Source: a virus. Taken from it: 64,000 nucleotides of DNA. Below, one piece after another: positions 2,023-60,101 of this stretch; positions within the stretch are counted from its first letter, which is position 1; each line of letters starts with the position of its first letter. Under the pieces are notes generated by a model that was given only the letters and a program-made list of their open reading frames with translations, did no database searches and was not told the origin of the DNA. The stretch lies in the IMG/VR virus record IMGVR_UViG_3300017917_001123, positions 267,571 through 331,570 of that record. One strand, written 5' to 3'. The position numbers were made by a program, and so were the translations under genes.

Positions 2023-2040
2023 GATGTAAATACTTAGCTT

Positions 2041-3551: not shown

Positions 3552-3576
3552 TAAAAAGAAACGGTTATTCTGTCCT

Positions 3577-6528: not shown

Positions 6529-6609
6529 TTGTAAATGTAAGGATCCATTTTACGCAGTTTCTTTATTTGCTGTCTGCGTTTATACCATCTATACGGTGTT
6601 AGCAACCAA

Positions 6610-7290
6610 TCAAGTATTCTTTTCATATTGTTCTCTTAACCAATTATAATTATTAATCAACAACAGGGCTTCTGGGTTATCTTGATTGTACTCTCCGTAG
6701 GACCTTCCTGCTAGTGCGCCACGAATAGCGTCGTGTCCAAATGGTTTGTCCTCTCCTACAGAGCACCATACCTTAAGACGTATAGAAGTTTCCGTGTCTA
6801 CTTGATTGTTAATTGTTTTGCTGGCTAGCTTACAACATTCTCTAAACCCGCTACGCCATGCGCTAAATGCGTCTGTGTTAAATGCTGTGTTGTTACTAAC
6901 TTCGGGCATAGCATTAAACCTAGTACCGATGCTAGTTGTCATGTCGGGCTTGCTAGTATCCATCTCCAGTGTTTGCTTTTTTGGTAAAAGTTTAACACCG
7001 CCGTATCCATATTCTAGTCCGTTAACAGGATTACGACTGCGCCATACATGAACAGCATCGTAGTCCCATTCGGGTGCCTGATAGCTAAAGTCAAAGCTGT
7101 CTAATACATCAGCGTCGCCGTCGATTACCCAAAACATTTCTGTAAACGATTTCTTTGCGGCGGCAAGGTGTGCGTTATGAATACCTTCTACATCCTTAAC
7201 CCGCTTTAATAAAGGAAAGCGACTCTTTAGCTTTTTGTAGTTTTCTTCAGCATTTGGTTCTCCATAGCTGATAAAGATCATATCATACAT
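6610..7290 (-). CDS. nucleotide-diphospho-sugar-transferase-like protein (paralog of 9814..10689)
   Basis: 'IFISYGEPNAEENY...WVIDGDADV' matches 'VFISYDEPNAEMNY...FVTVDADNIV' in the paralog. The DxD-like motif suggests a GT-A fold. Confidence 0.45.
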   Translation of the reverse strand: MYDMIFISYGEPNAEENYKKLKSRFPLLKRVKDVEGIHNAHLAAAKKSFTEMFWVIDGDADVLDSFDFSYQAPEWDYDAVHVWRSRNPVNGLEYGYGGVKLLPKKQTLEMDTSKPDMTTSIGTRFNAMPEVSNNTAFNTDAFSAWRSGFRECCKLASKTINNQVDTETSIRLKVWCSVGEDKPFGHDAIRGALAGRSYGEYNQDNPEALLLINNYNWLREQYEKNT

Positions 7291-8476
7291 TAAAGTAGGC
7301 CTTATAGTGTTCTTCTAACTCAATCATTGCTTTGTGCTTTTTAATCGTTGTTAGATTTTCATAGTTGTGTTTTAAAATTGGTTTGATTGATTCTAACCAG
7401 CTTGCTTTGTCTTCTATGGCTTTTAGTTTTTGTAGACTATTGATAATAGCATCTAGTCTTTGCTCTGTAGGCAATGTGTCGTAGCTTTCGTCTATAAATC
7501 CGTCAAACGTTTTATATCCTAAATCTCGCAACCTCTTCAAACTTCCCCGGCCACCCACAACAATAAACGGCTGTAGACAAGCAATAGGTTTAAAAATCTT
7601 TTCACTACAAAATGTAGATAACTCGTAGTCAGCAAACTGCGGCTCTGTTACAATGCTAACCCATGACTGTGCGTACAGATTTGGTAACACTCTTCCAATG
7701 TACACAGGATCTGGTTCTACATTGTTCGGCTTGCCATCAATTAACATAGGCAAATACTTGCGTCCTTGTTCTAGCAAACTTTGACTTGGCCAATCATTAG
7801 TTAATGGATGTATATGATGACCGTAGTCGTTCATACTAACAATACCGTCATCAAGTAAGCCCGCTTCTAATAACTTTAAGAAGAACCAGCTTCTATGTGA
7901 ACGTGGCCTCTTGTTTAAGCAATCATATAGTTTAGTCTTTGTATTAGCAGACACAACGGGCATTGGTCTAGAACGAGCATACCACATAAGGTCTGGTTCA
8001 AAGTGCTCAAATGTAATAACCTTCATAGGCTTTACATTGTGTGTGCTAACATATATCGAATACTGCTCCGGTGCCTGTGCGTTGCCTGTTATGTATATAA
8101 CTGCCTGCGGGGTAACACTATGGTTAGCTAACTCTTGATGAAACCAATCCCATAACTGAGGTGTCTGATAACCTTCAAGTGATTGATCGATACACAACAT
8201 TGCCCGCCCTTCCTGTAGGTCTAGCAAGTTCTGCTTAGGCAAATGGTTTAGAATACTGTCTCTAGCCCAGTCGTGCGGATGATGGTTAACACCTGTGCCA
8301 ATAATGTAATGATCTGCGCTTCCTGTGATAATGCTTATGTGATTGTCTTGATTAAAGTGATTAATCATTCTATCTAGCATAGGAGGTGTGGTAAATCGTT
8401 TGATACCAGATCCTGCCCTGTCTGTACAAGCAATAAAGTTTTCTCTAGCAGATATATTTTCAAACGCTACACGCAC
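7283..8476 (-). CDS. hypothetical protein (possible glycosyltransferase)
   Basis: 397-aa ORF embedded in the transferase cluster, no clear motif. Confidence 0.4.
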   Translation of the reverse strand: MRVAFENISARENFIACTDRAGSGIKRFTTPPMLDRMINHFNQDNHISIITGSADHYIIGTGVNHHPHDWARDSILNHLPKQNLLDLQEGRAMLCIDQSLEGYQTPQLWDWFHQELANHSVTPQAVIYITGNAQAPEQYSIYVSTHNVKPMKVITFEHFEPDLMWYARSRPMPVVSANTKTKLYDCLNKRPRSHRSWFFLKLLEAGLLDDGIVSMNDYGHHIHPLTNDWPSQSLLEQGRKYLPMLIDGKPNNVEPDPVYIGRVLPNLYAQSWVSIVTEPQFADYELSTFCSEKIFKPIACLQPFIVVGGRGSLKRLRDLGYKTFDGFIDESYDTLPTEQRLDAIINSLQKLKAIEDKASWLESIKPILKHNYENLTTIKKHKAMIELEEHYKAYFNV

Positions 8477-9821
8477 GATAAAACTCCGCTAGGTGTGGGA
8501 AAGTTGTAGTAAAGTTTGTACCACGTCTGCGGTCATGTTCTTTAAACCATTCGTAGAAGTCTTTACGTCCCTCTGTTAACTTGTCCTCTGGATAGTGGGT
8601 AGTTTCCATATAGTCTACTACACGTCTAAACTTTTCGTACTCTAATTCGCTAAACTTTCCTCTAGTCAGTCCCTTCATATGATTCTTAATGAATTCTAAA
8701 TGGCTGTACATGTAAGGCATAAACTCCTCTTTTGGTAGTATGTTCATGTCGTACTGTAAAGGTTCTTTGAGATAGGGTGTGTCAAATCGAATACGCTGAT
8801 ACTGTGTTTGGAATATCTTGTTATACTTCTTACGCCATTCTAGGATCTTTTCTAACAAGCTAGTAAAGCTAGTAACTGCTAGAATGTTAAATGTGATCAT
8901 AAAGGTAATGGGCAAGTTTGTCTTGGTAAGGTATATATCTAAGTTCTTTTCCCAAACTGTTAAGTCTAGTCCTGTGCGAGCATACTCCGCAGGCTTACCC
9001 CACGTGTCGATACTAGTAAACAGTTTAAACTTTTTAATCTTACCTTCTTTGAGCAACTTGTTAACACGTTCTGTTAATCGTTCTACTAGGATAGGCTTTA
9101 CACCTAAGTTACTGTTTAAATTAAGTTCTAAATTAGGTTTAGGATTGTTGTCTAACTCGTCAAACAAACGCCACGTGCTTTTTTGTAGCAAAGGTTCGCC
9201 GCCTGTGATGCGTAAGATGTTTAGTGTCTTACTAACTTCGGGCCACCATTGCCACCATGCGTTAACATACGGGTTATTATCTTCTTCATAGACTTGGAAC
9301 CAATCGACATCGTTTCTATGATTCTTAACCATACTATAAGGGCCGTGATCTCTAATCTCTTTGTAGTAGGCAGAACTATGCTTTGGATGGCAGTAACCGC
9401 ATTTGAAGTTGCACTCGTTTCCAAAACTTATTTCAATGTATTCTGGATTTACGTTAGCCATTGGTGCGTTTTTAATTTCTGCAAAACGCTCGGGTGTATA
9501 GATACTAGCATTTCTTTCGTATCTATCGCTAATGTAGTCTGGACCCATTGCTTCGATGTTCCAGCAATATTGGCAACCACTTGGCTTTTCTCCCTGTAGC
9601 ATAGCGTAACGCTCATCACGCTTTTGATTTGTGTTGTGTAATGCGCTAGGATTAATAGCTAATTCCAACAAAGGAACTACATGCGGTCTTGGATGATAGC
9701 AACTATGTGTCTGCCCTGTTTGTAAGTAGATAGTTGTGTGATGCCACTTAGCCATACAAAATGTAGGGCTAATTTCATTCATTATAGGAATAATCTTTTT
9801 AATGCGATCTACGTCAGACAC
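8460..9821 (-). CDS. radical SAM protein (paralog of 2583..3551)
   Basis: CxxxCxxC 'FGNECNFKCGYCHP' in the same sequence context as the other radical SAM enzyme. Additional Cys motifs 'SGCQYCWNIEA' and 'SCYHPRPH'. Confidence 0.7.
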   Translation of the reverse strand: MSDVDRIKKIIPIMNEISPTFCMAKWHHTTIYLQTGQTHSCYHPRPHVVPLLELAINPSALHNTNQKRDERYAMLQGEKPSGCQYCWNIEAMGPDYISDRYERNASIYTPERFAEIKNAPMANVNPEYIEISFGNECNFKCGYCHPKHSSAYYKEIRDHGPYSMVKNHRNDVDWFQVYEEDNNPYVNAWWQWWPEVSKTLNILRITGGEPLLQKSTWRLFDELDNNPKPNLELNLNSNLGVKPILVERLTERVNKLLKEGKIKKFKLFTSIDTWGKPAEYARTGLDLTVWEKNLDIYLTKTNLPITFMITFNILAVTSFTSLLEKILEWRKKYNKIFQTQYQRIRFDTPYLKEPLQYDMNILPKEEFMPYMYSHLEFIKNHMKGLTRGKFSELEYEKFRRVVDYMETTHYPEDKLTEGRKDFYEWFKEHDRRRGTNFTTTFPHLAEFYRACSV

Positions 9822-10689
9822 GATTTAACCTATAAAATTCGTCAAACGTATGAACTACGTACCCACTAACATCAGCGTCAAGAACAGGAACATCGATAAA
9901 GTTTATCGACTGTGCTTTAAACTTTTTAATCAAATCGTCTGCGCCAAATCGTTCAATTGCTTTAAACATGGTAGTTAGTGTTTCGAAGTCGCGGACGTTA
10001 GTAACATCCCAGTCTGTACACATTGTTAGATAAACACCTTGCCATGCTCCGGCAATAGCCCATAGACCGTTTTCTACGTGTGCGCCAAGGGTAAGCCATT
10101 GCTTTAATCTATGTAGGTTCTCCCACCAAATAACTTCTTTGGCAGGTTTGCCCTGTTCTACTCTAACGCCTTTGTCTAAACACATCTTAACACCTTCGCG
10201 AAACCCTGCTCGCCATGCTTGAAGCGGTGTTGTGTTTATAATAGTATCGCTGTATGAAACTGTGAGTGGATAGTACCCTGCTTCCCAACAGAAGTCTACT
10301 TGGCCTTTGTCTTCTTCTGCGGCTTCGTGTGTTTTCATGTTAAGCACAAAGTCCTTGCGCCAAACTTTAAGACTGCCGTTTCCGTAGCGTAGTCCGTTAA
10401 TACAGTTACGTCCTGGCCAATTGAACGCCTGTGCGTTTGGATATTGGTCTAAGTCTAATTGTAAATCCCAAAACTTAGGATTAACAATGTTGTCAGCATC
10501 AACGGTAACAAACCATTCTGTATTGCTTAGGTTAGCAGCCGCCTTGTGGCAAGCATCACTGCCCTTAACACCGTGAACACGTTCGACCCACGGCGCATCC
10601 TGTAACAGTTTAGCATAGTTCATTTCTGCGTTAGGTTCATCGTACGAGATAAACACACAGTCTAATTCATTAATTTTTAGCAACGACAT
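9814..10689 (-). CDS. nucleotide-diphospho-sugar-transferase-like protein (paralog of 6610..7290)
   Basis: The longest ORF runs to 10767. The paralog alignment supports the internal start 'MSLLKINELDCVFISYDEPNAEMNY' at 10689, which removes most of the overlap with the upstream gene. Confidence 0.45.
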   Translation of the reverse strand: MSLLKINELDCVFISYDEPNAEMNYAKLLQDAPWVERVHGVKGSDACHKAAANLSNTEWFVTVDADNIVNPKFWDLQLDLDQYPNAQAFNWPGRNCINGLRYGNGSLKVWRKDFVLNMKTHEAAEEDKGQVDFCWEAGYYPLTVSYSDTIINTTPLQAWRAGFREGVKMCLDKGVRVEQGKPAKEVIWWENLHRLKQWLTLGAHVENGLWAIAGAWQGVYLTMCTDWDVTNVRDFETLTTMFKAIERFGADDLIKKFKAQSINFIDVPVLDADVSGYVVHTFDEFYRLNRV

Positions 10690-11233
10690 AAACAGAAATA
10701 TCCTTAGGACCTTGATAAGGTAACGACATAGTTCCTTTTGTAATAAAAGGTTCAAGAGTAATCTCAAAGCTATCGTATATAGCGAATGGATTACCTTTGC
10801 GAGTTACATATAGATTGTACACTTTATCTTTAACTAAAGTCAATCGGTCGATGTTCTCTTGATTGGTAATTGTATCAAAGTAATTAGGATCGTAAATTAA
10901 GGTTAAACCTTTATCAGTTGCTTCGGTAATAATTCTTGCGCTGGCAATGAAATTTTCAAAACTACGTAATGCTCTAACAACTTCGTCTTCTGTGTTCAAG
11001 ACGATCTGACTCTCAAAAATTTCTTTTCGTCTAAATCCTACAATGTTACTATCAACTATTAACGGATAGTATTCGCTAGGTATTTTCTTTAAGGTAAAGA
11101 ACGGTTCCAATAGACTGAAATCGTCTACTGGTAAGACTGTATATCCTTCTGCCTCTTCAAATTCAAACCCGATGCCCTTGATAACTAGCGTATCGGATTC
11201 AAACTTTACATAACGTCTTTGTACTTGTTCCAT
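10670..11233 (-). CDS. hypothetical protein
   Basis: 187-aa ORF. Confidence 0.4.
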   Translation of the reverse strand: MEQVQRRYVKFESDTLVIKGIGFEFEEAEGYTVLPVDDFSLLEPFFTLKKIPSEYYPLIVDSNIVGFRRKEIFESQIVLNTEDEVVRALRSFENFIASARIITEATDKGLTLIYDPNYFDTITNQENIDRLTLVKDKVYNLYVTRKGNPFAIYDSFEITLEPFITKGTMSLPYQGPKDISVYVVAKN

Positions 11234-12069
11234 ACTAATGACTCTAATGTGTTGATGAAGTTATCTGTAATAAGATCCTTCTTTGTGTAATGTAGGATAT
11301 CGGACTGAGCGTATGGCCCAATCTTTATATTTAGGTCCCCGTCATAGTAAAACGGAATACGTTCTGTCCATTCGTAGTCTGTTGCGCCAAGCCCTTGACT
11401 TCTGCCCTTCATGTGTGTAAAGCGAGGAAATGGTACAGCAGGATTACTCATATCTTCTACCATATCTAACATCTTAGCAGTTAGCGCACAGGCTTCGTCT
11501 GTTGGGATGCTGTCAAACTTGTAATCCTCTAATTGTTCTTTCCACAGCTCTGGATAATCAGTTAGTGCTTCTAGTACACGAAAAAACTTTGTAGTTTCTC
11601 TACTTTGTTTGAAGTATAACCAGCCACTGTAGAAGTCTGGCAATTTGTTTTGATCAACGACATATCTGTAATAACGATCTGTCATTGTTTCTCCTCTGAA
11701 CGTCATAGGGCGGGTAGCAACATACAAGTCGTGTTTTCTAACAAACGGAAGCCAATGACTAACATCGCTTAGGAACAGCAGGTCGCTATCTAAGAATATA
11801 GTTTCTTTATAAGGCGTGTGCTCATAGGCTCTGCTTCTGGCATTCATTCCTTTAGGGCCATCGTAATTAATGACGGTATCAAATACCCATTTTAGTTTTA
11901 AGTTTTGAACAACCTTTGGAGTAGTTGTTGCGATGCTTACAGAATTAAATCCCTGCGGTTGTGTTAGTTTAATTGTTAGCGCAGTAGCATAGGCTAATCT
12001 AAGATAGTCTGTAGTCTGCGTGTTGTTGGCTATCATAAAGTAGCCTAGGTTAAACTCTTTTGAAATCAT
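11206..12069 (-). CDS. hypothetical protein with DxD motif (glycosyltransferase-like)
   Basis: 'IFLDSDLLFLSD' DxD-type motif. 287 aa. Confidence 0.4.
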   Translation of the reverse strand: MISKEFNLGYFMIANNTQTTDYLRLAYATALTIKLTQPQGFNSVSIATTTPKVVQNLKLKWVFDTVINYDGPKGMNARSRAYEHTPYKETIFLDSDLLFLSDVSHWLPFVRKHDLYVATRPMTFRGETMTDRYYRYVVDQNKLPDFYSGWLYFKQSRETTKFFRVLEALTDYPELWKEQLEDYKFDSIPTDEACALTAKMLDMVEDMSNPAVPFPRFTHMKGRSQGLGATDYEWTERIPFYYDGDLNIKIGPYAQSDILHYTKKDLITDNFINTLESLVWNKYKDVM

Positions 12070-12866
12070 TTGACTAACTCCATGAGCTTTGGTAACTTAT
12101 CTAGCAAGTCGAATTTATTCATGTAGTGTATGTCTTGCCCTTGCGTTTTAACAAGCGTTTCTCCACACATTAGGACTGTCAGTGTTTGATCTTTAACCTG
12201 TAGAATCTCATCTTTGTCTGTAAAGATTATAGGACTTGGTAAGGCAGTATAAAACTTATCAAGACCAAACCCGCCCATAGTATGACAAGCAACACTAAAT
12301 GCGTAATCGTTTCTAAATCTTCTTGTATCGAACTTATAGAGTGCGCCGTAGTAACTCCAGTTTTCTCTAACATGGTCAACAAGTTCAAACAGGGCTTTAA
12401 CTTCAGGTGTCTTGTTAAAAATAATGTTTGTAGCCCAGAGCATAGGAATACTAGCAGGGTCTAGCATTAGTGCGCCTAGTGAATTGCCCAGCATGTCGTT
12501 CATACCTTCGCAAATCATAAAGTCTCTATCTGCTTCTAAGTAAGGCTTCAAGCAACTGCTTTGAACTAAGAAATCGCTGTCAATCACTAGTGTTCTGTCA
12601 TAAGGGCTTAGTTCGTATGCCGAACTTCTGTTGGTGTTCTTAAACGAAATGGTCTTACCGGCAAGTGTTCTAGTATTGTCTGTTTCCACAGTAGTAACAA
12701 TCAGTCCATCAAATACGCCCACATCTGTTGCGTCCAAGGTCTTGCTGTCTGTAACAAGCGTGACAGGAATGTTAAGATGTTTCTTAACAAGGCCTGCGGC
12801 TAAAACAGCTTGAGGGCCGTATGCTATGTCGCCATCAAAGGCGAAAATGACGCACCCTGTTGTCAT
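12066..12866 (-). CDS. hypothetical protein with DxD motif (glycosyltransferase-like)
   Basis: 'LVIDSDFLVQS' DxD-type motif. Start overlaps the previous gene's stop (ATGA). Confidence 0.4.
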   Translation of the reverse strand: MTTGCVIFAFDGDIAYGPQAVLAAGLVKKHLNIPVTLVTDSKTLDATDVGVFDGLIVTTVETDNTRTLAGKTISFKNTNRSSAYELSPYDRTLVIDSDFLVQSSCLKPYLEADRDFMICEGMNDMLGNSLGALMLDPASIPMLWATNIIFNKTPEVKALFELVDHVRENWSYYGALYKFDTRRFRNDYAFSVACHTMGGFGLDKFYTALPSPIIFTDKDEILQVKDQTLTVLMCGETLVKTQGQDIHYMNKFDLLDKLPKLMELVK

Positions 12867-13204
12867 AGGTCCACCAGTTTGGCTGCGGTTCGTTTTTGTT
12901 TGATTTGACTGTAGTCTGTCATGTATCTGTTTGTTACTTCAAAATACACACCTACAATCTTGTTGAAGAAATCCTGTAGGTTTTCAATTTCTACAGGATA
13001 TTCGTTGTCGTCTAAGATAACGGCAGATTCATAATCTTTAATTGAACTGATAAAACCAATCAGTTCTCTGCCTACAGTGAAAATGCCTCCGTTGTGTGCG
13101 ATAACAAGTTCAGCAAGTGCTTTGTCTTTTAAGCGTTGTCTTTCTATTCCTAGTGTCTGTCTATAGTTTGCGTGTTCGATTGCTTGTTTAAGCCGATCAT
13201 CCAT
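12863..13204 (-). CDS. hypothetical protein
   Basis: 113-aa ORF, translationally coupled (ATGA overlap). Confidence 0.4.
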   Translation of the reverse strand: MDDRLKQAIEHANYRQTLGIERQRLKDKALAELVIAHNGGIFTVGRELIGFISSIKDYESAVILDDNEYPVEIENLQDFFNKIVGVYFEVTNRYMTDYSQIKQKRTAAKLVDL

Positions 13205-13213
13205 GTGTGCCTC

Positions 13214-14095
13214 TTAGTAGTTGTTTGGTTTTGTCTGTGAATAAGGATAGTAGATTGCTACGTTATGATATATGTTACCATTAACATAGTCCGGACCGCC
13301 TGCGATGCCCGGGTGATCATCGACATAATACACGGTCATAGTAATAGCAGTTCTTTGTTTAACGTCTGTGTTATTATGCCACAGATATATTTGTACATAG
13401 TTTGCTGTATAAGGACTTTCTGGACTATAAATTCTAAATGCTTCGTTAGCGCCTGTGTTTGATGTTCCATAAACACCACCTGATCCCCAGCTGTTGTAGA
13501 ATGTTCCGCCCCAGGCTGCGCCCGATTGGAACATCCCCGTACGAGTCAGAACAATAGTTCCCATGTTTGCTAGCAAGTTTGACCATGTTGCGTTTTGGCT
13601 AGTGCCGTCGCCCCCTGATCGACTTCCTGTAAATTGTAGTCTGCCACCGCCATTCCAGAAACCCCTGTATGCGGCATTGTCTGCCCAAGTAACTGACACA
13701 GATCCTAATGGAGTTAATACTCCGTTCCATGCTCCGCCATACCCATATGACGGGCCAGCAACATAAGCTAGCTGACCTGTACTGATAGCACCCCTATTAG
13801 AGTAAGCAGTATCAACACGAGCAGAGATTGTTGACAAATCAGTTGAAGTAATAATCGCCGTATCGGCTCTTGTTGTAAGGTCTGAGTTAGCACCTGTTTG
13901 TAATAGGTATGCTTTGTTAACGTCGGCTCTTAGATTGTTCCATTGAACACCGGTAATTTTTTCATTATCGGCTACCGTTGCCGCAGAGTAAGTTGTGTTA
14001 TAGCCAAGATCGTTAGTAGTACCATCTGGTGTGCTTAACACACTACGCATTTTAAGAATAACTGGGTTCCAGTCTTCGTTTTGAATGATTGCCAT
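13214..14095 (-). CDS. hypothetical beta-rich protein, paralog A
   Basis: 293 aa, Gly/Ser/Thr/Asn/Tyr/Trp-rich. Shares 'DLGYN', 'RxDxAY(S/A)xR' and 'SGGxGxSQxxSW(T/S)N' blocks with the adjacent gene. Confidence 0.5.
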   Translation of the reverse strand: MAIIQNEDWNPVILKMRSVLSTPDGTTNDLGYNTTYSAATVADNEKITGVQWNNLRADVNKAYLLQTGANSDLTTRADTAIITSTDLSTISARVDTAYSNRGAISTGQLAYVAGPSYGYGGAWNGVLTPLGSVSVTWADNAAYRGFWNGGGRLQFTGSRSGGDGTSQNATWSNLLANMGTIVLTRTGMFQSGAAWGGTFYNSWGSGGVYGTSNTGANEAFRIYSPESPYTANYVQIYLWHNNTDVKQRTAITMTVYYVDDHPGIAGGPDYVNGNIYHNVAIYYPYSQTKPNNY

Positions 14096-14099
14096 AATT

Positions 14100-14999
14100 T
14101 TATCCTAATGTAGATCCTAGCTGTGTAGCTGTTGGTGTTTTATTATACGAGTAATATGTGTTAACAGAAAAACCTAATGTGCCGTCGACTAGGTCTGGAC
14201 CTTGCCCTGTTGCTACGTGTGGGTCTAGTAATACATATTCGATCTCAAAACCTGTTGCAGTAAGAACATTATTACCGCCATATGGTCTAATATAAATGGT
14301 AAAGCTATTAGAAGTGTAGTTTGCGTCACTGGCAAGTATTCTAAAAGCAATACCAGCGTTTACACCAGTTTGTCCATTCTGTAACAAATTATATAGCCCG
14401 CCGTTTGGAAAACTACCGTTACGTGATTGATTTTGTTGAATGGCAGAGTTACCACTGAATACTAAAATTCCAATAGCCTGGAAGATATTAGTCCAGGAAG
14501 AAGTTTGACTTGAACCACTACCTCCTGTCATTGATCCGCCAATGGTAATAAATCCGCCTAAGTTAGCCCACCCACGAAACTCTGCGTTTGATCCCCAATC
14601 GAATCTTACTTTATATTTGTGCTCGGTCTTCCATGTGGAACCGTTAACATAATTATCTGATGTTGTAATTTGTAATTTTCCAACACCGGCAGTAGTTCTG
14701 CTAGCATAGGCAATGTCAACTTTTGCTGATACTTCTGTTAAGTCGTCTGTTTCGATTAACTGACTTCTGTTGTAGATAGCTAGTCCAGTAGACAATCCTG
14801 TTTGATGTTCAATTGCTAGGTTAACGTCTTGAATTACTAGGTTAAGGTCTTGTCCAACAACTTTGGCGCCTTGGACGGCAGGCAAACTAGCAACAGCTAG
14901 GTTGTATCCGAGGTCGAACACCGTGCCGCTAGGTGATCCGATAATTGATGCTATTTTGTTCTGTACTAAATTGAACGCTTCGTCCGTTACTTTTGCCAT
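14100..14999 (-). CDS. hypothetical beta-rich protein, paralog B
   Basis: 299 aa. Collinear similarity to 13214..14095 ('FDLGYN', 'AKVDIAYASR', 'GGSGSSQTSSWTN'). Confidence 0.5.
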   Translation of the reverse strand: MAKVTDEAFNLVQNKIASIIGSPSGTVFDLGYNLAVASLPAVQGAKVVGQDLNLVIQDVNLAIEHQTGLSTGLAIYNRSQLIETDDLTEVSAKVDIAYASRTTAGVGKLQITTSDNYVNGSTWKTEHKYKVRFDWGSNAEFRGWANLGGFITIGGSMTGGSGSSQTSSWTNIFQAIGILVFSGNSAIQQNQSRNGSFPNGGLYNLLQNGQTGVNAGIAFRILASDANYTSNSFTIYIRPYGGNNVLTATGFEIEYVLLDPHVATGQGPDLVDGTLGFSVNTYYSYNKTPTATQLGSTLG

Positions 15000-15010
15000 C
15001 AGTTGCTCCG

Positions 15011-15331
15011 TTATACCCTAAACGACTCGCCGCATCCGCAACGATCTCTTTCATTAGGGTTCTTAAATTCAAATCCTTCGTTTAGCCCGTTCCTTACATA
15101 ATCAACAGTTAGGCCATCTACATAAACATGGCTTTTGGGATCAACAAAAATGCTGAATCCGGTTTTTTCAAACACTAAATCGGAACTGTCGGGCTCGTCT
15201 ACATATTCTAACACATAAGCTAGCCCTGAACAGCCAGTAGTTTTAACGCCTATCCGAATGCCCATTCCTTTCCCTCTCTTTTGTAGGTTTAACAAGAATT
15301 TATTGTAGGCTTCAGTTGTTAAGTTGACCAT
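15011..15331 (-). CDS. Fe-S cluster assembly protein IscA/HesB/ErpA family
   Basis: 106 aa. 'GCSGLAY' and C-terminal 'CGCGESF' are the three conserved Cys of A-type carriers. Confidence 0.8.
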
Positions 15332-15353
15332 AAAGTGTTAAAATAAATATTAT
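15324..15353 (+). promoter_or_regulatory. sigma70-type promoter TTGACC-18-TATTAT (rightward, iscU)
   Basis: -35 at 15324-15329, -10 at 15348-15353. Overlaps a leftward promoter in the same AT-rich stretch. Confidence 0.35.
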
Positions 15354-15377
15354 ACGCATATTTAGCGAGTAAAGCAA
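15349..15377 (-). promoter_or_regulatory. sigma70-type promoter TTGCTT-17-TATAAT (leftward, minus-strand gene array)
   Basis: On the minus strand, TTGCTT (complement of 15372-15377), a 17-nt spacer, and TATAAT (complement of 15349-15354). Confidence 0.35.
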
Positions 15378-15397
15378 CGGCTTAAAAGGAGTCTGAT

Positions 15398-15796
15398 ATG
15401 GCATACAGCGAAAAGGTAATTGATCATTATGAAAACCCCAGAAATGTGGGTAGTTTTGATAAGTCTGATACTTCCGTTGGTACTGGTATGGTTGGTGCAC
15501 CTGCTTGCGGCGATGTTATGAAATTACAAATAAAGGTGGACGATGCTACAGGTATTATTACAGATGCGAAATTTAAAACGTATGGCTGTGGATCGGCTAT
15601 CGCAAGTTCGAGCCTTGTCACAGAGTGGGTCAAAGGAAAAACTCTTGACGAAGCCGGAGCAATCAAAAACAGCCAAATTGCCGAAGAATTAGCCCTTCCC
15701 CCGGTAAAGATTCACTGTTCAATTCTAGCAGAAGATGCTATCAAAGCCGCAGTAGCGGACTACAAGGAAAAACATGGAAGCAATAACAGTAACTGA
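15398..15796 (+). CDS. iscU: Fe-S cluster scaffold protein IscU/NifU-like
   Basis: '[13 protein letters not shown]', '[11 protein letters not shown]' and '[12 protein letters not shown]' are the three conserved Cys motifs of IscU. Confidence 0.85.
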
Positions 15797-16100
15797 TGCG
15801 GCTTATGACAAGATAATTGACGTACTTGCCGAAGAAAACAATCCTAATATTGCTCTTAGGGTATTTGTTCAGGGCGGCGGCTGTTCGGGCTTCCAATATG
15901 GTTTTACCCTAGACGAAGAACAAAACGAAGACGACTTTGTTATTGAAGGCAAAGTTAAGATTTTAGTTGACTCGATGAGCTACCAGTACCTTGTAGGTGC
16001 TACTATAGATTACAAAGATGAAATCTACGGTAGCCAATTTACTATTAAAAATCCCAACGCCCAATCAACTTGTGGCTGTGGCTCTAGTTTTTCCGTTTAA
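15774..16100 (+). CDS. Fe-S cluster assembly protein IscA/HesB family (second copy)
   Basis: '[11 protein letters not shown]' and C-terminal 'CGCGSSFSV'. Confidence 0.8.
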
Positions 16101-16108
16101 GGATATTA

Positions 16109-17359
16109 ATGAAGATAGCTATACTAGGTGTAGGTTCAGCAGGTTCTATTTCAATTGCCCAACTTTGTGCTCATGTTCCTAAAGGTTGTAAAGTAGTCAG
16201 CATACACGATCCATCAATTCCTATGTTTCAAATAGGCGAAAGTACAAATGCTAATATGGTATCTGTTCTTGAGCAAGCATGTCACTTTAGTTTCACTGAA
16301 GATCTTCCAGCAATGGAAAGTACAATCAAATTCGGTAATAAGTTTATGAAGTGGCGTGACCGAGATTGGTTCAACCCTTTGCTCGATGGTGGCATCGGAA
16401 TACATTTCAACAACTTTAAATTAAAAGAATTTGTAATCAGTCGAGTTAAAAAACATTGGCCTGATAAATTTGAAATGATAGAGGGAAACGTTTCTAATTT
16501 AGTGAACCATGGAACGTATGCCGACGTTGTAGTTGACGGACAGACCCATAGGTTTGATTGGGTAATTGATACACGAGGAACACCAACCAACTGGAGCGAA
16601 TACGAAATTGTAGACGGCATTTCGATTAATAGCGGAATTATTCATACAGTAAACGAGCCAGGAAACTTTCAATATACAGAACATCTAGCAACAGCAAATG
16701 GCTGGATGTTCGGAGTACCACTAACATCTCGTCATACTCACGGTTATCTCTTTAATGATAAAATTACTTCTAAAGAAGAAGCCATTGAAGATATGAAAAA
16801 ATATTTTGGCACAGACGATATTGGCCGTAAGAATGCTCCGGTACACTATCAATTTAAGAGTTACTTTGCTAAAAAAGTTCTAGAAGGTAGAGTCTTAAAG
16901 AACGGCAACAGGGCTAACTTCTTTGAACCAATTAGCGCCAGTGGAATATTCTACTATATCTATACAAACTATCTTCTAATTGATTTGTTTAAGAAAAGAC
17001 ACAACGAAGATGAACTAAATCAAAAATTTAGAGATTTCGGAAATCAGTTGGCAGATCTTATTTGTTTCTTTTATCACGGCGGAAGTACTTACGATACACC
17101 ATTTTGGAAATATGCCAAAGAAAACGCAAGACAGCGACTTTTTAGAAGTCCGTTTTTTAGAAAAGCGTTAATTGACTGTTTTGTCAAGGGCGAAGCAGGG
17201 TTACCACATTATGCTGACCCGTGGATCTTTAGTGGATATCATCTTCATTTAATCGATAAAAAGTTTGGATATAATTACTTCACAGATCCTGTAAAAAATC
17301 GGCAAGCAGTAGCAGAAATTGATGCCAACTTAAAGTCTCAAGGAAAAATAATATTATGA
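16109..17359 (+). CDS. flavin-dependent (tryptophan-type) halogenase-like protein
   Basis: N-terminal dinucleotide-binding 'IAILGVGSAGSI'. 'QIGESTNA' resembles the halogenase 'IGVGEAT' motif. 'ANGWMFGVPL' resembles the 'GWxWxIPL' motif. Confidence 0.5.
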   Translation: MKIAILGVGSAGSISIAQLCAHVPKGCKVVSIHDPSIPMFQIGESTNANMVSVLEQACHFSFTEDLPAMESTIKFGNKFMKWRDRDWFNPLLDGGIGIHFNNFKLKEFVISRVKKHWPDKFEMIEGNVSNLVNHGTYADVVVDGQTHRFDWVIDTRGTPTNWSEYEIVDGISINSGIIHTVNEPGNFQYTEHLATANGWMFGVPLTSRHTHGYLFNDKITSKEEAIEDMKKYFGTDDIGRKNAPVHYQFKSYFAKKVLEGRVLKNGNRANFFEPISASGIFYYIYTNYLLIDLFKKRHNEDELNQKFRDFGNQLADLICFFYHGGSTYDTPFWKYAKENARQRLFRSPFFRKALIDCFVKGEAGLPHYADPWIFSGYHLHLIDKKFGYNYFTDPVKNRQAVAEIDANLKSQGKIIL

Positions 17360-18075
17360 TTGAATATAGATCGCCGACAACTGTAAAAGATTCTCTACCC
17401 CAAACAGAACAACGTACCGAATGGATGGATGGTTGGTTTAAAATTCGTAAGCTCGACTTGAACATGGATGCTCTAAGACACGAATGTCTAGGAGTTCAAA
17501 AAATGGTCAAGGAACGTTACGGAGACCAAGACGGAATGAATTACTATGAGAATAAGACAACAAACTTATTTGGCAAGTACAACATTTTTATGTTTAGTTC
17601 TTTTTCTCTACATACATTGTACTCTGAGATAGTTAAGACTTGGAACATGGTCAAACCCGATGATCAAAAATATTATCTACAAAGTTGGTTAAATGTCTAT
17701 GACCAGAGCAAAAGTATTGGCTGGCACTATCATTGGACAGAAAAGTATCTTGCTTGGCATGGATTTTTCTGTGTTGATGTCGACGTGAGTAAAACAACTT
17801 ACGCATTACAGCCACCACACTTTCAGCGTAGCAAGTCAATTCCTTACGGAACTTACAACGGTCGAGAAATCCTTGAATACAACGATGAGTACGAACTAAT
17901 CGATGTAGTAGGACAAGACGGTCTCTTAATTATGAGCCCTAGCGCAGGAGATAGCCACAGAAATATTCCGTGGAAGATTGCGGAACGTCCTCGAATTACT
18001 ATTGCGTTTGATATTGTGCCAGGTCAACATATTTTTAATGAAGACTGGGAGAATCACTGGATACCTCTAGTATGA
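17356..18075 (+). CDS. hypothetical protein
   Basis: 239-aa ORF, ATGA overlap with the upstream gene. Confidence 0.45.
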   Translation: MIEYRSPTTVKDSLPQTEQRTEWMDGWFKIRKLDLNMDALRHECLGVQKMVKERYGDQDGMNYYENKTTNLFGKYNIFMFSSFSLHTLYSEIVKTWNMVKPDDQKYYLQSWLNVYDQSKSIGWHYHWTEKYLAWHGFFCVDVDVSKTTYALQPPHFQRSKSIPYGTYNGREILEYNDEYELIDVVGQDGLLIMSPSAGDSHRNIPWKIAERPRITIAFDIVPGQHIFNEDWENHWIPLV

Positions 18076-18326
18076 GCTTATATAAACAACTACACATTGA
18101 CACAATTAAGTTAGGAGCCCGTGCCCAAACTGAACACGATTTTGGAGAGGAGGGAGCCATTCTTATTCCAAATGGAAAATCCAAAATATTTGTACATTGG
18201 ATGACCGACAAAGGCAATATTCGTTCAACTTGGACTATGACTTATGCGTCCAAAATAAAAGGAAAAGTTCGTTTAATTAACGGTTTGGACAATGAACTTT
18301 CAATTCAAGTCTTGACAGACTGGTAA
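18072..18326 (+). CDS. hypothetical protein
   Basis: 84-aa ORF. Its 3' end carries the ligase promoter. Confidence 0.35.
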   Translation: MSLYKQLHIDTIKLGARAQTEHDFGEEGAILIPNGKSKIFVHWMTDKGNIRSTWTMTYASKIKGKVRLINGLDNELSIQVLTDW

Positions 18327-18340
18327 ATCTTTGCTATAAT
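18312..18340 (+). promoter_or_regulatory. consensus sigma70-type early promoter TTGACA-17-TATAAT
   Basis: Perfect hexamers: -35 at 18312-18317, -10 at 18335-18340, 30 nt upstream of the ligase ATG. Confidence 0.55.
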
Positions 18341-18369
18341 ATACATATAGACACTGAAAAAGGATCCAA

Positions 18370-19659
18370 ATGTATCAGATTATTCAAGAGCTTGAAGCAG
18401 ACAATAGTCGCCTTGCTAAAGAAGCAATCATTGAACGTGAAAAAGATAATGCTGAATTGTTTGAGGGCTTTGAACTTGCCCTAAGTCCATACATTACTTT
18501 TGGTGTTAAGAAAGTCCCTACACACGGTGGTCCAGACGGGCAAGGACTTCCTTGGGACGCATTTAAAGAACTTTGTCATCTTCTTAGCACTCGTCAGCTA
18601 ACTGGCGACGATGCTCGTTCTGCTATTGAACTAGCCCTTGGCGCAAGCACTAAAGCTCAATGGAATGATTGGTACCGTCGAATTCTTATTAAAGACCTCC
18701 GTTGCGGCGTTAGCGAAAAAACTGTAAATAAAGTTAAGAAAAACGCTGTACCAGTGTTTGAATGTATGCTGGCACACGACGGAGCCAATCATGAGAAGAA
18801 AATTAACGGTCTACGACTCCTCGAACCAAAGTTGGACGGTGTACGATGCCTCACAATCGTCGACTATGAATCTCGAACCGTGGTTCAGTACACACGAAAT
18901 GGCAAAGTATTGGAAAACTTTAGCCACATTACAGATAGCCTTCTTGCTAACATCGATGATATTGGTCGATCATATGTTCTTGACGGAGAAGTCGTTAGTC
19001 ATAGCTTCCAAGACTTGATGAAGCAGGTACATCGCAAAGACGATGTAAAAGCACAAGACGCTCGGCTGATGCTGTTTGACATTTTGCCTCTTAGCGAGTT
19101 TAAGAAAGGCAAGAGCATCATGGGCCAAAAGCGCCGTAGCAATCTACTCAAAACCCTCAAACCCATCTTTGACAAGTGCGGTAGCATCGATGTTATTCCG
19201 CAAATTGAAGTCGACCTCGACAGCTATGTGGGAGAACTTCAATTCAAAGAATTTAACAAACAAGCAATCGAAGACGGCTTCGAAGGCATTATGATCAAGG
19301 TGCCAGATGCGGCATATGAATGTAAGCGAAGCACTAGCTGGCTCAAAATTAAACCCTTTATCGAAGTGTCGCTAACTGTAGTTGGCATTGAAGAGGGTAC
19401 TGGTAAAAACGAAGGCCGACTTGGCGCATTAATCTGTGAGGGTGTAGATGACGGAAAAACTATCTCTGTCAATGTTGGATCGGGCTTTACTGACGACCAA
19501 CGTTCTGAATTCTGGTCCGATCAAGGATCTTTGGTTGGTCAAGTCGTGGAGATCCGCGCTGATGCGGCGACTCGGAGCCAAGATAGCGAGGATGTGTGGT
19601 CGCTACGTTTTCCTCGTTTTCTCCGATTCCGAGGTTTCAAAGCAGGTGAAAAAATTTAA
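18370..19659 (+). CDS. ATP-dependent DNA ligase
   Basis: Adenylation motif I 'EPKLDGVRC' (KxDG). Length and 'EGIMIK' motif fit the T4/T7-like ligase family. Confidence 0.85.
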   Translation: MYQIIQELEADNSRLAKEAIIEREKDNAELFEGFELALSPYITFGVKKVPTHGGPDGQGLPWDAFKELCHLLSTRQLTGDDARSAIELALGASTKAQWNDWYRRILIKDLRCGVSEKTVNKVKKNAVPVFECMLAHDGANHEKKINGLRLLEPKLDGVRCLTIVDYESRTVVQYTRNGKVLENFSHITDSLLANIDDIGRSYVLDGEVVSHSFQDLMKQVHRKDDVKAQDARLMLFDILPLSEFKKGKSIMGQKRRSNLLKTLKPIFDKCGSIDVIPQIEVDLDSYVGELQFKEFNKQAIEDGFEGIMIKVPDAAYECKRSTSWLKIKPFIEVSLTVVGIEEGTGKNEGRLGALICEGVDDGKTISVNVGSGFTDDQRSEFWSDQGSLVGQVVEIRADAATRSQDSEDVWSLRFPRFLRFRGFKAGEKI

Positions 19660-19660
19660 G

Positions 19661-19921
19661 ATGGAAAAATCAGCAGTTAAAGACTTACTATTTGGGGGCA
19701 TCAATGAGTTGATGCGTGACCGAAGATACTACTATCACAGTTCGGTAGGATCGGGTTACAGTTATTGGACTGATGAAGGCAAGGAAGCCCTTATTGAGTA
19801 TATGAATGTAATGGGCTGGAAACTAAAGGAAGCCGAAGAGGCCGACTTGAATAAGCGTTCGAAGGATATGGTAATGAACGCATTAAAGGGAAAGAATCTT
19901 GACGGAAGTAAGAGTTCTTGA
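19661..19921 (+). CDS. hypothetical protein
   Basis: The ORF track gives 19448..19921, but that overlaps the ligase 3' end. The internal ATG at 19661, right after the ligase stop, is taken as the start (MEKSAVKDLL...). Confidence 0.4.
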   Translation: MEKSAVKDLLFGGINELMRDRRYYYHSSVGSGYSYWTDEGKEALIEYMNVMGWKLKEAEEADLNKRSKDMVMNALKGKNLDGSKSS

Positions 19922-20507
19922 TAATGTAGTACCTGTAGAAATACAGGATAAGGTGCTGGACATGGTTCAGCACCATCGCTTCAATTGGCATTTCGCACCT
20001 AGTAATGTCTATGAAGACGATGAAAATCGTGGCCAGACTTTTCTGGACAATCAAACTGTAGATTCTTATCAGTTTTATCATTTGTTTCTACAGACTCAAA
20101 TGGGTTACAACGAGCCTTTCTATCAAAATTTTAGGCCGTTAATTCAAGAGATACAAAAGTCGTTTGATCTACAAAGCCGAAATGTCTTGCGTGTTAAAGC
20201 AAATATGCTGACTAACAACAGACGTTTCTATCCACTGGCGTATAATCCTGCCCATGTGGATAATGAAGAAGAACATTGGGTAGTTGTTTACTATGTTAAC
20301 GATTCGGATGGGGATACAGTAATTTTCAATGAAACTTACGGTTCTTCGTTTGATAAACTTACCGAACAGGCAAGAGTTTCGCCTAAGAAAGGCAGAGCTG
20401 TATGCTTTCCGGGTAAGTATTTTCACGCTAGTTCAAATCCTATCAATTCGGAGTGGAGATGCGTGTTTAACATTAACCTGTCGATGACAGGGCCCATTGT
20501 TCTATAA
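19899..20507 (+). CDS. 2OG-Fe(II) oxygenase superfamily protein
   Basis: HxD 'HVDNEEE', distal His 'KYFHASS' and basic 'RCVFNIN' fit the 2-His-1-carboxylate facial triad plus the 2OG-binding residue. Confidence 0.55.
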   Translation: MTEVRVLDNVVPVEIQDKVLDMVQHHRFNWHFAPSNVYEDDENRGQTFLDNQTVDSYQFYHLFLQTQMGYNEPFYQNFRPLIQEIQKSFDLQSRNVLRVKANMLTNNRRFYPLAYNPAHVDNEEEHWVVVYYVNDSDGDTVIFNETYGSSFDKLTEQARVSPKKGRAVCFPGKYFHASSNPINSEWRCVFNINLSMTGPIVL

Positions 20508-20523
20508 GGAGATGTAACTCAAA

Positions 20524-20739
20524 GTGGCAAAAGACGATTGTATCGTAATGTTCGGTACTGTTGAAGAAGTACTACCCAACGCAATGTTTCGCGTTAAGCT
20601 CGAAAGCGGACAATATGTTCTAGGACATATCTCTGGTAAGATGCGTCAAAACAGAATTCAAATTCTACTAGGTGATAATGTCAAAATTGAAATGAGTCCA
20701 TATGATTTGTCTAAGGGACGAATAGTTTATAGACAATGA
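20524..20739 (+). CDS. infA: translation initiation factor IF-1
   Basis: 71 aa, GTG start. '[60 protein letters not shown]' is near-identical in pattern to bacterial IF-1 ('...HISGKMRKNYIRILTGDKV...[12 protein letters not shown]'). Confidence 0.85.
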
Positions 20740-21536
20740 TCCCTATCATTACAGGTTCTGACGGTTATATAGGAACCAACCTATCCCAGCTATTCAATAA
20801 GCACAATAGATCTTTTGTTGGGCTTGATCGCAAATCAGGTCCAGATCTCCTGAGTGCCGAGGGCAAGGATCTTTTTGAGGAATGTGCTAGTACAGCGGAT
20901 GTAGTTATACATCTTGCGGCTCGTCCTCGAATTCCTCCTAGCTGGGTAGATACTACTGCTTATATTCGTGATAACATTGAGCTAACAGAATATGTTGCTC
21001 GAATATGCGCCGAACAAGGCTGTCATTTAATATTTGCTAGTTCTAGCTCTGTTTACGGGAACGGAACAGGTCCTCTGAATCCCTATGCTTGGACTAAAAA
21101 AGCCGGAGAGGACATTATTCGTATCTACGGCGAAAAAGGACTAAGTTACACAATTTGTCGCTTGTTTACTACCTTTGGCAATAACGGACCCTTGGTTTTA
21201 GATAAGTGGCTCAAGCAAAGCCTAGCCGGAGAACCTATAACACTCTACGGCGATGGCACACAAAGTAGAGATTTTATTCATGTAGAGGATGTAGCAGATG
21301 CTCTTTACTCTGCTTATCTTGCCAAATTAGACAAAGAAACGCTAGATGTAGGCACAGGCAAAGCCCACAAACTACAGGATATTGCGGACTGGTACGGGAA
21401 CGAAATTATTCGTGGTCCTGCTCAAGAGGGCTATGCTCACAGCACTCAAGCGAAAGCCCAGCGAACAATGGAATTGCTCAACTGGGCTCCTAAACGTCCA
21501 GTAATTAGTTGGATCCGTTCTGGCCTAGATATGTAG
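20736..21536 (+). CDS. NAD-dependent epimerase/dehydratase (SDR family)
   Basis: N-terminal 'ITGSDGYIG' GxxGxxG and 'YAWTKK' YxxxK catalytic motif. Ends in TAG. Confidence 0.65.
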
Positions 21537-52363: not shown

Positions 52364-52392
52364 TTGACGGGCTCGTCAACTTGTTTTATAAT
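52364..52392 (+). promoter_or_regulatory. sigma70-type promoter TTGACG-17-TATAAT driving the tmRNA precursor
   Basis: -35 at 52364-52369, -10 at 52387-52392. Confidence 0.55.
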
Positions 52393-52469
52393 ATATAAAC
52401 TTTGAAAGGACTACATCATGGCATATAGAGCTAAAAATGGTAGCGTAAAGGCAGCGGCACGTAGAGCAT

Positions 52470-52557: not shown

Positions 52558-52645
52558 AAAGAGGATTGTATGAACGAAGAAGTAACTAAATGGATGCTGG
52601 GCGTGGGCCTAGTTCTTTTAATGTTCTTTTTAGTCCTTTTTTGAT

Positions 52646-60090: not shown

Positions 60091-60101
60091 GGAAATTTAC
60101 A

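Follow-up and report, generated by a model that had tools for sequence, protein, structure and literature searches.

A Phage-Borne Iron-Sulfur Cluster Assembly Module With iscU Between Two Different A-Type Carrier Genes

Introduction

Why would a phage carry the scaffold and the carriers of iron-sulfur (Fe-S) cluster assembly, and with which partners would their products work? This question is raised by a stretch of viral DNA of 64,000 nucleotides (nt), referred to here as the window (IMG/VR virus record IMGVR_UViG_3300017917_001123, positions 267,571 to 331,570). Three small genes lie side by side in the window: an iscA-like gene encoding an A-type carrier (ATC) of subfamily ATC-II and 106 amino acids (aa) (15011-15331, - strand), iscU, encoding an Fe-S cluster assembly scaffold of 132 aa (15398-15796, + strand), and erpA, encoding an A-type carrier of subfamily ATC-I and 108 aa (15774-16100, +). 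The iscA-like gene stands at the head of a gap-free leftward array and is separated from iscU by a divergent intergenic region of 66 nt (15332-15397). The 3’ end of iscU and the start of erpA share an out-of-frame overlap of 23 nt (15774-15796, +), which can be read directly in the sequence. The three open reading frames (ORFs) and the gap are located where an earlier reading of the bare sequence (the original prediction) had placed them, and its central claim, that they make up a phage-borne Fe-S assembly module, is borne out by family scores, aligned ligands and the phage genes around them.

The explanation favored here, which is rated as likely, is that the three are functional host-derived genes forming a phage copy of the middle and late parts of the iron-sulfur cluster (ISC) pathway (IscU, IscA and ErpA), and that their products work with the IscS, ferredoxin (Fdx) and HscBA proteins of the host.

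Identity of the Three Proteins

IscU scores 187.1 bits against the Pfam family PF01592 (NifU_N; gathering score 22) and passes the NCBIfam equivalog TIGR01999 (226.3 bits, cut-off 192.4). Its motifs are GAPACGD (C37, D39), GCGSAIASS (C64) and LPPVKIHCS (H106, C107), and these five residues, the counterparts of three Cys, Asp39 and His105 in E. coli numbering, align with those of the solved IscU proteins of H. influenzae (E=5e-71) and E. coli (E=7e-68). The LPPVK motif recognised by HscA occupies residues 100-104 and is identical in the solved IscU proteins.

The carrier on the left of iscU belongs to the Fe-S_biosyn family (PF01521, 66.8 bits against 26.3) and to subfamily TIGR00049 (110.4 against 58.8). 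IscA heads its family ranking, followed by SufA (117) and ErpA (66), and its closest solved relative is IscA of E. coli (1S98, E=1e-36); its motifs are GCSG (C34) and CGCGESF (C98, C100). The carrier on the right also matches PF01521 (68 bits) and passes the ErpA equivalog NF010147 (166.4, cut-off 117), with far lower scores for the next specific families, SufA (84) and IscA (79). Its best solved match is HI1723 of H. influenzae (2APN, E=2e-38), an ErpA orthologue, and its motifs are GGCSG (C37) and CGCGSSF (C100, C102). The family scores of the three proteins greatly exceed chance, and the matches to solved proteins are sufficient to establish the folds.

All the cysteine motifs quoted in the original prediction, including HCS of IscU and CGCG(E/S)SF of both carriers, were found; Pfam and NCBIfam confirm the families as IscU, IscA-like and ErpA, no conserved Cys ligand is lost in any of the three alignments, and the best solved relatives are all Fe-S proteins (IscU, IscA and an ErpA orthologue). 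IscU thus lies between two non-identical A-type carriers, and all three proteins have intact ligands. The carriers share 34.9% identity and are therefore, in agreement with the original prediction, not the product of a recent duplication. Judged from the ranking of their hidden Markov model scores, used as a proxy for phylogenetic placement, they are old paralogues of the classical proteobacterial subfamilies ATC-II (IscA, SufA) and ATC-I (ErpA) defined by Vinella et al. (2009; PMC2682760).

Viral Context and Probable Host

The genes on either side of the module are those of a phage. Hallmarks in the window include rIIA, NrdA/NrdB, ThyX, an ATP-dependent DNA ligase, tail fibre/spike proteins and virion proteins, and the nearest cultured relatives of a structural protein encoded in the window are T4-like cyanomyoviruses (28–35% identity); the window is part of a large T4-like phage. 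A megablast search of 50,697 phage records gave no match for positions 14000-18400; there is no close cultured relative at the DNA level. The GC content of the three genes (40–43%) is about that of the window (41%), and viral iscU genes have a GC content of 43%, versus 58% for the closest bacterial iscU genes. An identical erpA gene with the same neighbours is present in an independent assembly (Logan SRR5831666).

It could be argued that the locus is not a phage feature at all, but a fragment of a bacterial isc operon introduced by misassembly or contamination, or a set of decaying passenger genes. Several ‘phage’ records matching IscU, IscA or ErpA are, indeed, really bacterial contigs, one of which (‘Acinetobacter phage MD-2021a’) carries a full isc operon. 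This reading is, however, already refuted and retains a negligible probability: the GC content of the genes equals that of the window, unlike that of the closest bacterial iscU genes, phage genes flank the module on both sides, the same junctions recur in independent assemblies (L083, L243), and the ORFs are intact, with ratios of nonsynonymous to synonymous substitution rates (dN/dS) well below 1. Most of the deposited ‘phage’ matches to the three proteins were discarded as precedents because they are mislabelled bacterial contigs. CAKLQH020000011, CAKLQF020000009, OR851435, OR845407 and others are labelled as phage and appear to be fragments of bacterial chromosomes, and the record for ‘Acinetobacter phage MD-2021a’, the one that was opened, holds a complete iscRSUA-hscBA-fdx operon. 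Mislabelled phage records of this kind can create false precedents for phage-borne genes.

The remainder of the bacterial pathway is missing from the window. No homologue of IscR, IscS, HscB, HscA or Fdx was detected by tblastn in these 64 kb, and the full iscRSUA-hscBA-fdx context is present at all 80 of the 80 closest bacterial iscU loci.

The nearest cellular IscU proteins are found in Burkholderiales (85–90% identity), mostly in Comamonadaceae (Limnohabitans, Rhodoferax, Polaromonas and Curvibacter). Identity statistics separate viral from bacterial IscU weakly, and this protein is too conserved to refine the host beyond the betaproteobacteria. The window also contains a two-piece (permuted) transfer-messenger RNA (tmRNA) of the betaproteobacterial type (52447-52836, +; Rfam RF01850, 152.6 bits, gathering score 84). 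The tag peptide given by ARAGORN is ANDEVYALAA, and a perfect TTGACG-17-TATAAT promoter lies directly upstream (52364-52392). Together, the Burkholderiales-like IscU and the independent beta-type tmRNA suggest that the phage has a betaproteobacterial host, probably among the freshwater betaproteobacteria.

Conservation and Gene Order in Related Viruses

At least 595 IscU-encoding and at least 351 ErpA-encoding stretches were found among the IMG/VR relatives, and gene order was counted in 160 fetched viral loci. The ligands of IscU (C37, D39, C64, H106, C107) are 99–100% conserved in 116 viral and 79 bacterial homologues, those of IscA (C34, C98, C100) are 99–100% conserved in 96 viral homologues, and those of ErpA (C37, C100, C102) are invariant in 84 viral homologues (100%). 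The dN/dS ratios, obtained for pairs consisting of the window and a relative or of two viruses and with unsaturated dS, are about 0.05–0.09 for iscU, 0.14–0.16 for iscA and 0.09 for erpA. These values indicate that the viral copies are functional and under purifying selection. Presence in a phage genome, recurrence in other viral genomes and purifying selection are the features by which a phage auxiliary gene is recognised, and the module displays all three; its GC content is ameliorated to the phage level. Two further observations concern iscU itself. Residue 55 (window positions 15560-15562) is Thr in 85% of the 116 viral proteins and Glu in 97% of the 79 closest bacterial ones. An antisense ORF of 79 aa within iscU (15427-15666, -) has tblastn matches in all 82 loci, but this is a by-product of the conservation of iscU and was rejected as evidence of a gene.

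The genes occur in hundreds of IMG/VR viral contigs, as iscU with or without iscA and erpA, and in shuffled orders. In 52 loci, iscU is followed by iscA; erpA, iscU and iscA follow one another in 17 loci, erpA precedes iscU in 12, and the order iscU, iscA, erpA and ligase is found in six, and further orders exist. Relatives carry iscU alone, iscU with iscA, iscU with erpA, iscA alone or all three, the full set being present in 37 of the 160 fetched loci. A neighbour of bacterial type, such as IscS, was found in only three to five of them. As the arrangements differ among relatives, the genes are best described not as a fixed operon but as modules that move about within a phage lineage. Many of these loci share nrdA, nrdB, grx, a tail fibre gene and a PD-(D/E)XK nuclease gene with the window, and can therefore be assigned to the same broad phage group.

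The closest relatives, which retain the divergent layout of the window, were found by protein search with IscA. In L243, IscA and the same downstream genes are followed by a 67-nt gap, on the other side of which lie IscU, three extra genes, a halogenase, ErpA, an unannotated ORF of 227 aa, an ORF of 84 aa and a ligase. In L245, the IscA side is the same, and a gap of 68 nt leads directly to the halogenase, with neither iscU nor erpA. In the 194-kb contig L136, IscA points leftward and IscU, ErpA and a ligase point rightward, with an extra small ORF in the gap; the divergent layout is, thus, common to L136 and L243.

The location of the module varies among relatives: it may separate or adjoin nrdA and nrdB, precede the nuclease gene or neighbour AhpC/AhpD-like genes. 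The first of these sites bears on another explanation, in which IscA and IscU would serve as iron chaperones for the class Ia ribonucleotide reductase NrdB and for 2-oxoglutarate (2OG)-Fe(II) oxygenases. In many relatives (L008, L012, L015, L030 and others), iscU or iscU-iscA adjoins the nrdA and nrdB genes or is inserted between them, and the products of the window include NrdAB and three or more 2OG-Fe(II)-oxygenase-like proteins. Adjacency to the nrd genes is, however, not retained in the window or its closest relatives and may mark only an insertion hotspot, and nrdB is followed not by a YfaE-like ferredoxin but by a CPYC glutaredoxin. Furthermore, every cluster-ligand Cys is strictly conserved, including those of ErpA, which implies cluster chemistry and not iron chemistry alone. 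An iron-chaperone role is, therefore, very improbable. The glutaredoxin after nrdB was also considered as a monothiol Fe-S carrier or a YfaE-like ferredoxin, and was ruled out because it is a CPYC dithiol Grx. The PD-(D/E)XK nuclease (41802-42533), a homologue of which adjoins iscU-iscA in many relatives, was considered as a Cas4-like 4Fe-4S client and ruled out because it has only two Cys.

The Overlap Between iscU and the Downstream Carrier

The junction between iscU and the carrier gene that follows it distinguishes the viral loci from bacterial operons. Of the 82 viral loci in which iscU is directly followed by a carrier gene, 81 have the carrier start about 20–30 nt inside the 3’ end of iscU. 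The same overlap is present in only one of 75 bacterial isc operons, in which the median gap is +9 nt. The junction is recognisably alike for downstream carriers of the IscA and ErpA types: the His126 codon CAT and the following G provide the ATG of the carrier, and the iscU stop codon TGA lies within carrier codons for Thr-Asp/Glu. In the window, this position is occupied by the ErpA-type carrier, with its 23 nt out of frame. A Shine-Dalgarno sequence, AAGGAG (15386-15391, +), lies 6 nt before the iscU ATG and is conserved in the relatives L243 and L245, and a Shine-Dalgarno-like AAGGAA (15764-15769, +) precedes erpA.

Translation of erpA is probably coupled to that of iscU through this overlap, to judge from the arrangement of the two reading frames. 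Inheritance, and not independent selection, may account for part of the overlap. A frameshift fusion of IscU and ErpA across the overlap was also considered, and was dropped when inspection of the junction by eye revealed no slippery or recoding motif.

The Divergent Intergenic Region

The original prediction placed overlapping divergent promoters in the 66-nt gap, a claim that holds only in part. Both sigma-70-like strings are present, TTGACC-18-TATTAT to the right (15324-15353, +) and TTGCTT-17-TATAAT to the left (15377-15349, -), and their -10 hexamers do overlap (15348-15353 and 15349-15354). However, such strings occur at chance level. The rightward one matches at 10 of 12 positions, its -35 box overlapping the iscA start codon; the leftward one has a perfect -10 box and a -35 box matching at three of six positions, which is below the scan’s own criterion. 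A scan of 8 kb yielded 24 sigma-70-like sites, versus 19.6 ± 5.3 in shuffled sequences (no enrichment), and the relaxed motif classes of both gap sites are at about the chance frequency once six perfect promoters have been removed. In an alignment of the gaps of the window, L243 and L245 (alignment A1), neither -35 box is conserved in the relatives and the leftward -10 box reads TGTAAT in L245.

The six perfect TTGACN-17-TATAAT sites of the window (18312, 36356 (-), 45524, 52364, 52854 and 56899; 0.22 expected) are a different matter. They precede the ligase gene, the nrdA region, the tmRNA, a porin-like gene, rIIA and a leftward gene. Their number and placement indicate that the window uses sigma-70-type promoters, and they probably constitute the early promoter set of this phage.

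The whole gap is strongly conserved in L243 (67 nt) and L245 (68 nt), even though the halogenase takes the place of iscU on the right in L245. Two boxes resembling T4 late promoters are invariant in the alignment: ATAAATA (15343-15349, +), 48 nt upstream of the iscU ATG, and CTAAATA (15365-15359, -), 27 nt upstream of the iscA ATG. NTAAATA boxes are concentrated between genes, with 10 of 22 in intergenic DNA, which makes up 5.6% of the window (binomial P ~1e-7), and precede the genes at 32389, 37612, 38139, 39925 and 43610, of which those at 39925 and 43610 have tail-protein matches. The gap boxes thus lie near gene starts, belong to an intergenically enriched class and are conserved in relatives, as would be expected of late promoters of the T4 type. 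The first base of the T4 late box, TATAAATA, is variable, and CTAAATA is used in Aeh1 (PMC1524935); the late-promoter variant of cyanophages is NATAAATA (PMC2984593). The exact T4 box TATAAATA was tried and rejected as the motif of this window, in which it occurs once against five expected; the enriched form is the looser NTAAATA. The NTAAATA(T) boxes upstream of genes elsewhere in the window, which are candidate T4-type late promoters, lie at 32377, 37549, 38111, 39890 and 43581 (+) and at 22046 and 37097 (-).

With iscA at the head of a leftward array, a leftward promoter is a logical necessity, and divergent transcription from the gap is likely, although it probably does not depend on the proposed -35/-10 pairs. 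On the strength of motif enrichment and conservation, expression most likely proceeds from back-to-back NTAAATA promoters of the T4 late type, which would place it late in infection. The gap does not form a stable RNA fold (z=0.73), and a regulatory RNA structure was therefore rejected.

Transcription Units and Candidate Clients

The ten genes directly 3’ of iscA (6610-14999, -) are separated by gaps of no more than 11 nt and probably form a single leftward operon headed by iscA. The order of IscA followed by proteins of about 300 aa, about 290 aa and 113 aa, among others, is found also in L243 and L245. Among the genes 3’ of iscA, only one had a useful match in PHROGs, Pfam or NCBIfam; it encodes a radical S-adenosylmethionine (SAM) enzyme with an N-terminal twitch domain (8460-9821, -; NF033640, 313 bits, cut-off 170). 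This protein has the motif CNFKCGYC and extra N-terminal Cys residues at positions 22, 41, 83 and 86, and it is because of this motif and the four further Cys that at least two Fe-S clusters are expected in the enzyme. A second radical SAM enzyme, with the motif CNYKCSYC, is encoded in a separate rightward block (2583-3551, +; PF04055, 47.7 bits, cut-off 29.5). Both genes encode CX3CX2C motifs, and they are the two radical SAM genes to which the original prediction alluded. The two genes directly downstream of iscA (13214-14095 and 14100-14999, both -) are tandem paralogues of about 295 aa that are 32% identical and for which neither Pfam nor PHROGs gave a match; in L243 and L245, too, the pair directly follows iscA, even without iscU and erpA.

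On the other side, erpA is followed by closely packed co-oriented genes (16109-18326, +) encoding a Trp-halogenase-family flavoprotein (PF04820, 108 bits), a weak 2OG-Fe(II)-oxygenase-like protein and an 84-aa ORF. These genes are separated by 8-nt gaps or overlap, the halogenase and oxygenase-like genes (together 16109-18075, +) by 4 nt, and the next canonical promoter, TTGACA-17-TATAAT (18312-18340), lies before the ligase gene. They probably belong to the same rightward transcription unit as iscU and erpA. In L243, the halogenase gene is found between iscU and erpA; in L245, it directly faces iscA, and L136 lacks it.

These transcription units bear on the suggestion, made in the original prediction, that the two carriers act in parallel, each for its own radical SAM client. 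The window does hold two carriers and two radical SAM genes, with iscA sharing the leftward array with the twitch-domain gene and erpA in a separate rightward unit. In addition, IscA and ErpA of E. coli can each load targets directly under anaerobiosis, according to Vinella et al. (PMC2682760). However, ATC-I and ATC-II are ancient subfamilies that act genetically in series under aerobic conditions, related phages have zero, one or two carriers without radical SAM homologues alongside, and the radical SAM gene at 2583-3551 belongs to the transcription unit of neither carrier. An assignment of one carrier to each enzyme is thus not supported by E. coli genetics or by the relatives, and parallel action is considered unlikely.

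Proposed Function of the Module

In E. coli grown aerobically, clusters pass from IscU to an ATC-II carrier, then to ErpA (ATC-I) and, finally, to apo-targets; the ATC-II proteins remain near the machinery that makes the clusters, and delivery is the specialty of the ATC-I proteins (Vinella et al., 2009; PMC2682760). This is exactly the IscU/ATC-II/ATC-I chain found in the phage trio. A serial relay is more plausible than a carrier for each enzyme given the E. coli genetics, the free variation in carrier number and the lack of radical SAM homologues at the loci selected by iscU, and the carriers would, thus, most likely act in the order IscU, IscA, ErpA and targets. It is proposed that phage IscU docks on host IscS, ferredoxin and HscBA, because the ligands and the LPPVK motif have been retained and the protein is 85–90% identical to IscU of Burkholderiales; as the window encodes none of these partners, the module would have to use those of the host. 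Clusters built on IscU would then move to IscA and on to ErpA, which would insert [4Fe-4S] clusters into apo-proteins, with the two radical SAM enzymes as the phage clients, and any host Fe-S enzymes needed during infection would gain too. The dependence on host IscS, the order of transfer and the identity of the clients are what we infer from gene content and the E. coli precedent.

Several observations weigh against this explanation or parts of it. The left carrier stays below both IscA equivalog cut-offs (TIGR02011, 147.0 versus 150.6, 3.6 bits short; NF007049, 134.3 versus 181), and its accurate label, going by these scores, is ‘IscA-like ATC-II’. No recognisable Shine-Dalgarno sequence precedes iscA. 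L245 has no iscU or erpA nearby despite its iscA gene, from which it follows that the three genes are not an obligate unit. No homologues of the radical SAM genes of the window were found within 6 kb in 80 viral loci selected by iscU, at which the module instead adjoins nrdA/nrdB/grx, a PD-(D/E)XK nuclease gene or AhpC/AhpD-like genes, making the link to these particular clients weak. The late-promoter reading is drawn from motif enrichment and conservation, and, as the window covers 64 kb of the genome, IscS or ferredoxin could be encoded elsewhere.

The neighbours of the module in relatives lend themselves to another reading, according to which the module mainly sustains the host Fe-S proteome (respiration, isoprenoid synthesis, DNA repair) during infection, rather than phage clients. 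Such support would matter in oxic, iron-poor surface water after the shut-off of host gene expression. At most related viral loci, iscU-iscA has no radical SAM gene in its vicinity; the window has AhpC/TSA and AhpD-like (CMD) peroxide-defence genes, homologues of which lie beside iscU in L035 and L071; phage C48C1 has a peroxiredoxin gene near its iscU; and published readings of such auxiliary genes lean in the same direction (PMC5332604; PMC9611531). Against this, iscA shares its array with a gene for a two-cluster radical SAM enzyme, and the late-type boxes suggest expression at a time when host upkeep matters less. Host maintenance is, moreover, compatible with the phage ISC copy favored here and does not exclude it. 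As the main role of the module it has perhaps one chance in four, that is, it is clearly less probable than the favored explanation, though it is the strongest of its rivals.

A bolder version of the favored explanation may also be considered. The locus would belong to a large, mostly undescribed T4-like lineage infecting (freshwater) betaproteobacteria that has made a virus-specific cassette from ISC parts of the host, with translation of the scaffold and a carrier coupled, here in the form of a full relay under late promoters dedicated to the multi-cluster radical SAM enzymes of the phage late in infection. This is a speculative proposal that is probably wrong in at least some of its parts. 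If true, the module would be a phage-owned cofactor-insertion line and not a simple boost of host metabolism.

Other Features of the Window

A dense block of modification-type genes occupies both strands from 40 to 12866. Besides the two radical SAM enzymes, it encodes a methyltransferase (726-1466), a 2OG-Fe(II) oxygenase (1408-2022) and a carbamoyltransferase (5053-6528), and for many of its ORFs no family match was obtained. A further 2OG-Fe(II)-oxygenase-like gene and an NAD-dependent epimerase gene lie at 19899-21536. The two regions may encode a glycan, nucleotide or DNA modification pathway. The AhpC/TSA peroxiredoxin is encoded at 55566-56105 (+) and the CMD-family AhpD-like protein, with a CHFC motif, at 56321-56827 (+). 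Other genes encode a small outer-membrane beta-barrel/porin-like protein (52960-53424, +; PF13609, PF13505) and an SPFH/Band 7 protein (60003-60896, +). A tRNA with the anticodon CTA (62231-62305, +; Rfam tRNA, 65 bits), labelled tRNA-Pyl by ARAGORN, is a potential amber suppressor.

Relation to Known Systems and Significance

The module shares with the ISC operon of E. coli and Burkholderiales the IscU ligands and LPPVK motif, the three invariant Cys of each carrier and the placement of a carrier gene directly after iscU. Unlike bacterial iscRSUA-hscBA-fdx, the phage window has the scaffold and two carriers only. The erpA gene, which is unlinked to isc in E. coli, is placed after iscU with a 23-nt overlap; iscA is inverted and heads an array of phage genes; base composition is phage-like, and the iscU/carrier overlap is virus-specific.

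Aquatic viromes contain Fe-S assembly genes among their more frequent auxiliary genes. The sufA and iscU genes have been reported in viromes of the photic zone. Of the complete environmental viral genomes, 14 have A-type carrier genes and six have IscU genes; they include T4-like genomes that also hold cas4, grx, paaD and numerous radical SAM genes (Nishimura et al., 2017; PMC5332604). The iscU and erpA genes have also been reported in HMO-2011-type phages (PMC9038755). The locus described here resembles these marine examples (PMC5332604; PMC9038755) in its gene families, in a gamma-/betaproteobacterial type of IscU and in the T4-like genomes with radical SAM and glutaredoxin genes. It differs from them in that scaffold, ATC-II and ATC-I are together at one locus, and the lineage appears betaproteobacterial and freshwater-like, as judged from the nearest cellular IscU and the beta-type tmRNA, in contrast to the marine phages associated with SAR86 and SAR116. 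In the cultured and deposited phage set, C48C1 (OQ984149, Kyanoviridae) is the one record that encodes a close IscU and is clearly that of a phage; it has an IscU 76% identical to that of the window, a T4-like genome and a peroxiredoxin gene within 8 kb. In C48C1, iscU stands alone: there is no A-type carrier in the 16 kb around it, and the record is not among the tblastn matches to either carrier of the window. Two huge uncultured phages in the deposited set carry a carrier gene. One scaffold with an ATC-II and an ATC-I carrier is also the composition of the mitochondrial system (ISCU, with ISA1 and ISA2, respectively; PMC2682760), and ISCA1/ISCA2 has been described as a heterocomplex implicated in the maturation of [4Fe-4S] proteins (PMC5437272). 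This likeness is an analogy only.

Phage iscU and carrier genes have already been published as a host-derived class, and the locus is a real, conserved example of that class and not a new system. In the searchable, incomplete literature, no description was found of a co-located trio of scaffold, ATC-II and ATC-I, of a virus-specific iscU/carrier overlap, of modular shuffling within one lineage or of a late-type divergent promoter region, and no functional or experimental study of phage IscU or A-type carriers. Knowledge of Fe-S biogenesis itself is unchanged by this locus. For an uncultured phage lineage, the Comamonadaceae-like IscU and the beta-type tmRNA provide a hint as to the host. The locus is also a compact test case, with the scaffold, both carrier subfamilies and a candidate two-cluster radical SAM client in the same gene array, and each of its phage genes can be matched to an existing E. 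coli mutant (iscU, iscA sufA and erpA). It could, thus, show whether phages top up the pathway of their host or run a cluster-delivery line of their own.

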